Source: Clostridia bacterium
GTDB lineage: Bacteria; Bacillota; Clostridia; TANB77; CAG-508
Length of the DNA stretch: 64,000 nt
Assembly: GCA_017936925.1 (NCBI GenBank)
Contig: JAGBEP010000027.1
Coordinates: forward strand, 34,673-98,672
Direction: 5' to 3'
The notes below the pieces were generated by a model, which saw only the letters and a program-made list of their open reading frames with translations, ran no database searches and had not been told where the DNA came from. The position numbers and the translations under genes were made by a program. Positions 14,044-14,313 of this stretch are shown here, one piece after another (position 1 is the stretch's first letter; each line of letters starts with the position of its first letter).

Positions 14044-14092
14044 AGAAAACGCGGGAATCTGAAAATTAAATTGTTATATTTTCAGTCCCGCG
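14042..14092 (-). terminator. Strong hairpin terminator; U-tract on the minus strand, probably bidirectional
   Basis: CGCGGGA..CTGAAAAT...ATTTTCAG.TCCCGCG, followed by TTTTCTTT on the minus strand. Confidence 0.8.
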
Positions 14093-14280
14093 AAATCTTC
14101 ATATAAACATGTTGTTAAATGTTTTTTATGTATTTTAGAATTCGGCAATCTTGGTAAAAAGATTAACTCGTAGCATTGCTACAGTGATTAGAATTTATAA
14201 TACTTAAATCCGAATTCTAAAGTGGCATTTATTGGATGCAGTCAAAAATAAAGTAGTCTTAAGTATTATAAAAAGTACGT
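14045..14280 (-). ncRNA. Candidate structured small RNA (~230 nt), family not recognised
   Basis: Bounded by a consensus promoter and a terminator, no ORF with an RBS seen, and 12- and 13-bp inverted repeats plus two small hairpins. Confidence 0.5.
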
Positions 14281-14284
14281 TACT

Positions 14285-14313
14285 ATTATAACATTGTTTA
14301 CATAAAAAGTCAA
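14285..14313 (-). promoter_or_regulatory. Strong sigma-A promoter just downstream of the upp stop
   Basis: Minus strand TTGACT-17 nt-TATAAT with extended TG. Confidence 0.75.

Follow-up and report, generated by a model that had tools for sequence, protein, structure and literature searches.

Results and discussion

A conserved promoter-to-terminator unit behind pyrP-upp

What is encoded in the 277 nucleotides (nt) that separate two convergent genes, at positions 14044-14320, in a 64,000-nt stretch of Clostridia bacterium DNA (contig JAGBEP010000027.1; the whole stretch is called the window below)? The gap follows pyrP-upp, a gene that fuses uracil permease to uracil phosphoribosyltransferase, and an initial annotation made from the sequence alone had proposed an unannotated small RNA (sRNA) or an RNA switch on the minus strand. 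With a probability of roughly 0.6 we read the gap as a gene for a non-coding RNA of ~235 nt, transcribed on the minus strand from ~14278 to ~14043 from a promoter of its own and ending at a terminator shared with pyrP-upp. That there is a real sRNA gene here, whatever its details, we hold to be very probable. The part of the proposal that stood is a conserved non-coding unit running from promoter to terminator; for its fold, a pseudoknot and a switch are both candidates. A new sRNA family of narrow distribution is well supported and matches no described family, and our best reading is a structured, independently transcribed RNA restricted to one clade.

To follow the unit in other genomes, 97 loci were gathered: scanning genomes with the fusion protein gave 80, individual relatives of that protein gave 14, and a metagenome scan with a 24-nt pattern gave three. 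Four distinct versions of the unit are found among them, namely that of the window and those of loci L081, L001 and L002; the copy at L091 is identical to L001 and the copy at L089 to L002. L081 has the same mscL neighbour as the window, and its upp protein is 90% identical to the window's. L001 and L002 come from the mouse gut and represent two related species, with 81% identity to the window in upp. The 80 loci of the genome scan contained the RNA in L001 and L002 only, and the look-ups of relatives added L081 only. One further match of the metagenome pattern scan, L090, was set aside as a chance match. All carriers are related uncultured gut Clostridia of low guanine-cytosine content (28.5% for the window genome), and the window sequence is present in DNA runs of sheep, pig, goat and bovine gut metagenomes. 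The unit always lies directly 3' of pyrP-upp, the sole neighbour conserved alongside it, and the next gene varies (mscL, an oxidoreductase or a surface protein). Neither an nhmmer profile run on all 97 loci (650 kb) nor a core covariance model run on the window and 62 loci (468 kb) brought up another copy, divergent or not, and no paralogue was seen in the window. A pattern scan of viral contigs and blastn searches of phages and plasmids gave no match to the unit.

The promoter is predicted from sequence and is kept in all four versions (coordinates of all features are collected in Table 1). Its boxes are separated by a 17-nt spacer, and with 11 of 12 consensus positions it was the top of 24 promoter-like sites in 4 kb in a consensus scan. 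It begins 7 nt past the pyrP-upp stop codon (TAA at 14323-14321), so the promoter of the initial annotation stands and its distance of 8 nt is corrected. The -10 box of L001 and L002 reads TGgTAAAAT, which is still a good -10 box.

At the other end the proposed strong terminator was recovered as a hairpin CGCGGGA-CUGAAAAU / AUUUUCAG-(AU)-UCCCGCG, with CGCGGGACUGAAAAU as its 5' arm, at 14092-14050. It had been missed by a simple terminator scanner because its loop is 11 nt long and the scanner limit is 8. The U-tract exists solely in the minus-strand sense. In L001 and L002 the lower stem has been rebuilt with compensating changes, from CGCGGGA/UCCCGCG to CGAGGUUC/GAACCUCG. As first annotated, the ~230 nt between promoter and terminator are free of credible open reading frames (ORFs), with none of at least 25 aa on either strand of 14044-14320.

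The conserved block spans the -35 box to the U-tract, and the flanks on both sides are unalignable. Between the two clades the RNA is 82-88% identical, compared with 52-61% at four-fold degenerate sites of upp, which are saturated. The comparison supports that the unit is under purifying selection.

Table 1. Coordinates of the unit, its neighbours and the assembled RNA contigs. Positions are those of the window unless L001 is named; MFE, minimum free energy
Feature	Position	Strand	Basis or remark
-35 box TTGACT	14308-14313	minus	invariant in all four homologues
Extended -10 box TGtTATAAT	14285-14293	minus	TATAAT 14290-14285, TG 14293-14292
Predicted transcription start, ~G14278	14276-14280	minus	promoter geometry, 5-9 nt past the -10 box
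Arm A5' (UUUAUAAUACUUAA) of long-range helix A	14259-14272	minus	14 nt, 100% complementary to A3'; invariant in four homologues
U-rich linker (G-A/G-CUACUUUAUUUUUGA-C/U), candidate interaction site	14241-14258	minus	unpaired in MFE fold
Hairpin 1, GCAU...AUGC in the window, GCAUC...GAUGC in homologues	14225-14239	minus	MFE fold; stem kept, loop varies in sequence and length
Arm B5' (UUUAGAAUUCGG) of long-range helix B	14210-14221	minus	12 nt, 100% complementary to B3'; invariant
Arm A3' (UUAAGUAUUAUAAA)	14194-14207	minus	2 nt past B5'; one A deleted in L081, giving 13 bp
Hairpin 2, GUAGC-AAU-GCUAC	14170-14182	minus	MFE fold; invariant
Hairpin 3, AAUCUU-UUUACC-AAGAUU	14147-14164	minus	MFE fold; stem invariant, loop varies in L081
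Arm B3' (CCGAAUUCUAAA)	14134-14145	minus	repeat search and conservation
A-rich linker, most variable part of the RNA	14113-14133	minus	alignment of homologues
Conserved pre-terminator segment ACAUGUUUAUAUGAAGAUUU	14093-14112	minus	alignment and RNAalifold
Intrinsic terminator: 15-bp stem, 2-nt bulge, 11-nt loop, then UUUUCUUU	14042-14092	minus	MFE fold
pyrP-upp fusion gene (uracil permease and uracil phosphoribosyltransferase)	14321-16321	minus	666 aa; PF00860 and PF14681
mscL-like gene	13552-14043	plus	163 aa
Contig X52	L001 5191-5392		
Contig X55	L001 5132-5370		depth 20, against ~3 for contigs of the flanking genes
Contig X56	L001 5186-5389		
Contig X58	L001 5176-5351		
Contig X59	L001 5183-5352		
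Contig X60	L001 5212-5352		
Contig X61	L001 5176-5338		
Contig X62	L001 5176-5329		

Expression in mouse-gut metatranscriptomes

The version of L001 and L002 is present in many mouse-gut metatranscriptomes. Logan contigs were mapped to L001, on which the promoter has its -35 box at 5125 and the end of its -10 box at 5153; transcription is predicted to start at ~5160, and the terminator hairpin ends at ~5390. For eight RNA-Seq runs from three studies the sole contig of the L001 locus is a short one within the unit, and in the same runs the depth is 0 over the last 250 nt of upp and over the downstream gene. Translated to the window, the contigs start at 14306 in one run and at 14263-14227 in the others. 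A discrete RNA of roughly the predicted extent thus accumulates well above its neighbours at the homologous locus. The ~230-nt minus-strand RNA of the initial annotation thus has a counterpart in a discrete short contig of the L001 homologue. The minus strand is assigned from the promoter and from the U-tract, which exists in that sense only, and the 5' end is predicted from the promoter.

In three small RNA-Seq runs (X63, X64 and X65) we detect a contig (L002 5297-5498) from the convergent surface-protein gene, which crosses the terminator hairpin and covers ~80-100 nt of the unit in its 3' part, a hint that the convergent transcripts overlap.

Predicted long-range helices and fold

The repeats of the unit would form two long helices, A and B. 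Repeat A had been described as a 13-bp inverted repeat; it is indeed perfect, and 14 nt long. The 12-bp repeat B is fully complementary as described, and the repeat coordinates place the four arms on the RNA in the same interleaved order A5'-B5'-A3'-B3', with loops of 37, 2 and 48 nt. Both hairpins that had been pointed out earlier, GTAGC-aat-GCTAC and AATCTT-loop-AAGATT (hairpins 2 and 3), appear in the MFE fold. A third site able to pair with B5', AAUUCUAA at 14195-14188, is present in the window, and two of the four versions (L001 and L002) have lost it. Two further repeats, by which the promoter spacer would pair with a 3' segment, are not conserved in L081 or L001 and were treated as chance.

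The fold is far from what composition alone would give. The MFE has a z-score of -6.2, and none of 200 dinucleotide shuffles folds equally well. Among 300 dinucleotide shuffles of the transcript none contains a perfect inverted repeat of at least 14 nt, four contain one of at least 12 nt, and none contains two of at least 12 nt.

As A and B share no nucleotides and B5' and A3' lie 2 nt apart, an H-type pseudoknot with 26 coaxially stacked base pairs is possible. From general pseudoknot geometry the 37- and 48-nt loops would be long enough to cross the stems, and they would carry hairpins 1-3. The predicted arrangement resembles that of known H-type pseudoknots such as those of transfer-messenger RNA (tmRNA) in its order 5'-S1-L1-S2-L2-S1'-L3-S2', where the 2-nt L2 would allow coaxial stacking. 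It differs from them in that stems of 14 and 12 bp are far longer than usual and in that its 37- and 48-nt loops carry hairpins, and from the tmRNA pseudoknots in lacking a tRNA-like domain or a tag ORF (ARAGORN). The two helices may instead belong to alternative nested folds. Between the fold with A alone and that with B alone the energy gap is 0.7-1.7 kcal/mol in the window and L001, and 5.0 kcal/mol in L002. We put the chance that both helices form together at slightly less than even. Another possibility comes from RNAalifold, where the 5' end (CUUUUUAUAA) is paired to UUAUAUGAAG of the pre-terminator segment, a competing partner of A5'.

Substitutions among the four versions follow the predicted pairing. 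Variable columns of the core make up 2 of 84 paired positions and 24 of 62 unpaired ones (Fisher p = 8e-9), and in hairpins 1 and 3 the loops change in sequence and length while the stems stay. This pattern is good evidence, though not covariation, that the predicted pairings matter. No pair varies in A, B, hairpin 2 or hairpin 3, A and B together contributing 26 pairs, and the invariant unpaired 15-nt core of the linker is CUACUUUAUUUUUGA at 14256-14242.

One could also think of the repeats as a DNA-level element, that is as protein-binding or recombination sites, or as chance repeats in AT-rich DNA. Both arms of each repeat are invariant in sequence, as protein sites would be, but shuffling never gives such repeats, the conserved block is bounded exactly by the promoter and the oriented terminator, RNA accumulates from the unit, and no second copy turned up in the window, the gathered loci, phages or plasmids. 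We give this explanation next to no chance.

Proposed mode of action and relation to known sRNAs

In the scheme that we propose, a near-consensus sigma-A promoter directly past the pyrP-upp stop codon would drive the RNA, and transcription would end at the intrinsic terminator that also serves pyrP-upp. The AU-rich helices A (14 bp) and B (12 bp) would then fold either into one large H-type pseudoknot or into two alternative nested folds. We infer a trans-acting regulator, which would most likely work through the invariant single-stranded U-rich linker or a bound protein; conservation over the full length, including the invariant linker and the pre-terminator segment, suggests action through such segments or through a protein. 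A role in pyrimidine salvage is suggested because pyrP-upp is the one constant neighbour, which is an argument from adjacency only, and that the RNA controls pyrimidine genes appears rather doubtful to us.

In enterobacteria, type I 3'-UTR-adjacent sRNAs (UTR, untranslated region) such as DapZ and MicL have their own promoter at the end of a coding gene and share the terminator of the mRNA. The present unit resembles them in its promoter 7 nt past the stop codon, in the one terminator that would serve both transcripts in the window and L081 and in yielding a discrete RNA more abundant than the parent mRNA, as judged by the contigs of the L001/L002 homologue. It departs from them in its uncultured Gram-positive host, where no Hfq dependence is expected, in being conserved over its full length and not in a seed only, in its long-range interleaved helices, and in the hairpin that stands between upp and the RNA in L001 and L002.

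SR1 and RsaE/RoxS are independent riboregulators of Firmicutes with their own promoter and terminator. They share with the unit the layout of a stand-alone transcript of 100-250 nt with an intrinsic terminator and conserved unpaired segments that could pair with mRNAs. Unlike them, the unit has no C-rich anti-Shine-Dalgarno motifs and no sequence similarity to them, and its candidate seed is U-rich, with weak predicted duplexes of -10 to -13 kcal/mol.

Evidence against an independent RNA and the 3' UTR alternative

Several observations weigh against an independently transcribed, trans-acting RNA, the first of them concerning its ends. The Logan contigs are strandless and their ends are blurred. 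Three runs of one study all start at L001 5176, which is C14263 of the window and lies within arm A5', and with contig starts inside A5' helix A is not certain in the mature RNA. In the deepest run (X55) the contig already begins 28 nt ahead of the predicted start. Both the runs of study P17 and those labelled 'RNA?' are covered evenly and at low depth from upp through the unit, which may reflect read-through or DNA; several of the 'RNA?' runs behave like DNA. For the window's own version no RNA runs were found, and the reads of its own species are DNA-like metagenome contigs with even coverage.

The initial annotation looked to covariation for support, and none emerged from the collected homologues; the 57 tested pairs (A, B and the hairpins) were all invariant or uninformative across the four versions. 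As all pairs are invariant, the helices are left with their perfect complementarity and the substitution pattern. The four sequences also amount to two close pairs, which leaves few independent comparisons. The stems consist almost wholly of A-U pairs in an AT-biased genome, and as only one in six single changes per pair keeps the pairing, invariance would be expected under selection for pairing.

Distribution and target searches count in the same direction. More than 20 other lineages with the fusion gene have a plain terminator or unrelated sequence after upp, so the RNA does not serve a core function. A scan of the window for complements of the linker gave 23 matches where 15 are expected. 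The pyrP-upp ribosome-binding region pairs with the linker at 12 of 15 positions, a match as frequent as chance, and in duplex scans this site ranks 10th of 66 start regions. Targets predicted in the pyrP-upp leader and among the 66 start regions of the window did not rise above background.

Some of these observations would suit a unit that is no separate gene. It would be the structured 3' UTR of pyrP-upp, or a stable piece left by its decay or processing, and would act in cis, for instance to protect the 3' end of the mRNA or to set its half-life. In the window and L081 pyrP-upp has no terminator of its own ahead of the RNA unit, so upp transcripts must run through it; contigs of runs X54 and X36 do run on from upp into the unit, contig X55 begins upstream of the predicted start, and the RNA is always attached to upp. 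Against a UTR stands the extended -10 promoter, matching the consensus at 11 of 12 positions and conserved in four versions, and in L001 and L002 an AU-rich hairpin with a T-run separates upp from that promoter. Further, the unit assembles in the eight RNA-Seq runs in which the last 250 nt of upp have zero depth, and most pyrP-upp genes lack the unit. We therefore regard the cis-acting UTR or fragment as unlikely and retain the sRNA gene with its own promoter.

Comparison with known RNA families and coding potential

Rfam 15 at gathering thresholds detected three tRNAs only in the whole window, and at E<=10 with lax filters the best matches in 13950-14420 were weak (E 3-7) and to unrelated families. 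ARAGORN found 0 genes for tRNA or tmRNA in 13500-14800. The earlier failure to match the RNA of the signal recognition particle, RNase P, tmRNA, T-box elements or common riboswitches is in line with this.

A 6S RNA deserves more attention, as the initial annotation had left a divergent one open. The RNA has the size of 6S (~200 nt), a strong promoter of the housekeeping type, apparent abundance, being recovered in metatranscriptomes when the neighbouring mRNAs are absent, and potential alternative pairings, which are also a feature of 6S refolding. RNAalifold moreover draws a closing stem between the 5' end and the pre-terminator segment, followed by a large internal loop with stem B beyond. 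Yet 6S (RF00013) and its relatives gave no match, either at gathering thresholds in the window or at E<=10 with lax filters in 13950-14420. The closing stem consists of 9 AU/GU pairs only, and none of the four versions forms it in its single-sequence MFE fold. At the apex a multiloop carries two hairpins, and there is no rod with a long closing stem and a central bubble. The 5' bulge of 6S RNA holds a template site for product RNAs that have a conserved GG at positions 4-6 (PMC8414754), and the CC that would encode it is missing from the invariant 5' linker GACUACUUUAUUUUUGA. The distribution is also patchy for 6S; the RNA is missing beside upp in close relatives and has no copy elsewhere in the sequence searched. 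In lactic acid bacteria 6S is reported in the literature between rarA and uspA, and our literature search gave nothing relevant on an sRNA beside upp or on synteny of 6S and upp. We judge a divergent 6S RNA unlikely, and leave only a very small chance to a highly divergent 6S-like RNA sequestering RNA polymerase holoenzyme.

An orphan riboswitch or attenuator would have A5' toggle between A3' and the pre-terminator segment, and would control antisense read-through into the convergent gene. A promoter followed by a ~190-nt leader and a terminator is a classic layout for it, A5' has competing pairings with the A-only and B-only folds nearly isoenergetic, and in X63-X65 the convergent gene is transcribed into the 3' part of the unit. 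But no same-strand gene follows in the three contexts, the convergent gene differs in each of them, no aptamer family matches, and the only anti-terminator that can be drawn has 7 AU/GU pairs against the 15-bp terminator. A riboswitch in the usual sense was rejected for the missing downstream gene and aptamer, and the attenuator seems very improbable.

Finally, the unit contains a conserved 13-codon ORF, MLRVNLFTKIAEF (window 14134-14174, minus strand), which could be taken for a micro-protein or a type I toxin as all four versions keep it in frame and at equal length. A Shine-Dalgarno sequence is missing, the AUG lies within hairpin 2, and all four differences between the versions are non-synonymous; together with the lack of any ORF of at least 25 aa this led us to reject a coding function. 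Hairpins 2 and 3 and arm B3' lie in the same stretch, so RNA structure explains why the ORF is conserved, probably as a by-product. A micro-protein or toxin is thus extremely unlikely, and we return to a non-coding sRNA as the preferred reading.

Neighbouring genes and related loci

The mscL stop codon overlaps the U-tract of the terminator, hence the hairpin probably serves both convergent transcripts. The MscL-like protein has a C-terminal extension with two CxxC motifs (CPYC...CPHC), a zinc-ribbon-like tail. Near the RNA locus, the window (11489-12958) and L002 (5420-7084) encode homologous secreted surface proteins with the same N-terminal domain and a Ser/Thr/Pro-rich linker. These show residual synteny among the RNA-bearing species, and the ClpB-neighboured lineages are without it.

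The permease-phosphoribosyltransferase fusion itself is common across these uncultured low-GC gut bacteria, with thousands of matches. Upstream of pyrP-upp (window 16345-16545, minus strand) we observed a promoter-like site, a conserved ORF of 31-38 codons and a terminator-like hairpin, and the same leader layout occurs at equivalent places in L081, L001, L002 and L082-L096. In the window the leader ORF is MKNLRNVPTANKTKIATRALFLISIISFLFYIYEYFKY (16371-16487, minus strand); its stop codon sits in the 5' arm of the hairpin UACUAGAA-UUUAC-UUCUAGUA (16376-16356), which has a U-run behind it and directly precedes the AAGGAGG ribosome-binding site. Many relatives have a called small ORF of 31-36 aa in the equivalent leader position. 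The leader looks like translation-coupled attenuation of a uracil-salvage gene.

Other elements occupy the place after pyrP-upp at several of the gathered loci. L096 has an unrelated promoter-leader-terminator unit ahead of an acetyltransferase gene (2573-2860), L083 (2115-2408) and L084 (3975-4167) have long hairpins unrelated to the RNA, L093 has a tRNA-like sequence on the opposite strand (4017-4267), and L004 and L034 have a gene for an IS200/REP-type transposase.

Significance

Almost no RNA biology has been described for small, low-GC, uncultured gut Clostridia. The present unit is a clean sRNA candidate from this group, backed by conservation and expression, and it can be traced in existing mouse-gut metatranscriptomes. 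Conserved over its full length and with perfect, interleaved helices, it lends itself well to structure probing, and its fixed place after the permease-phosphoribosyltransferase fusion offers a concrete hypothesis, control of pyrimidine salvage. If it is merely a typical base-pairing sRNA of narrow distribution, it would be a useful annotation and unsurprising. A more ambitious view, which we consider distinctly unlikely, would make it the founding member of a new class of structured RNAs that bind protein or act otherwise than by antisense pairing, built on an unusually long (26-bp) coaxial pseudoknot core and abundant in gut metatranscriptomes. Such an RNA could replace a housekeeping RNA such as 6S in this clade, or could regulate nucleotide salvage by sensing a metabolite or a protein directly. 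Interest in the RNA would rise if the pseudoknot core binds a protein or a ligand.

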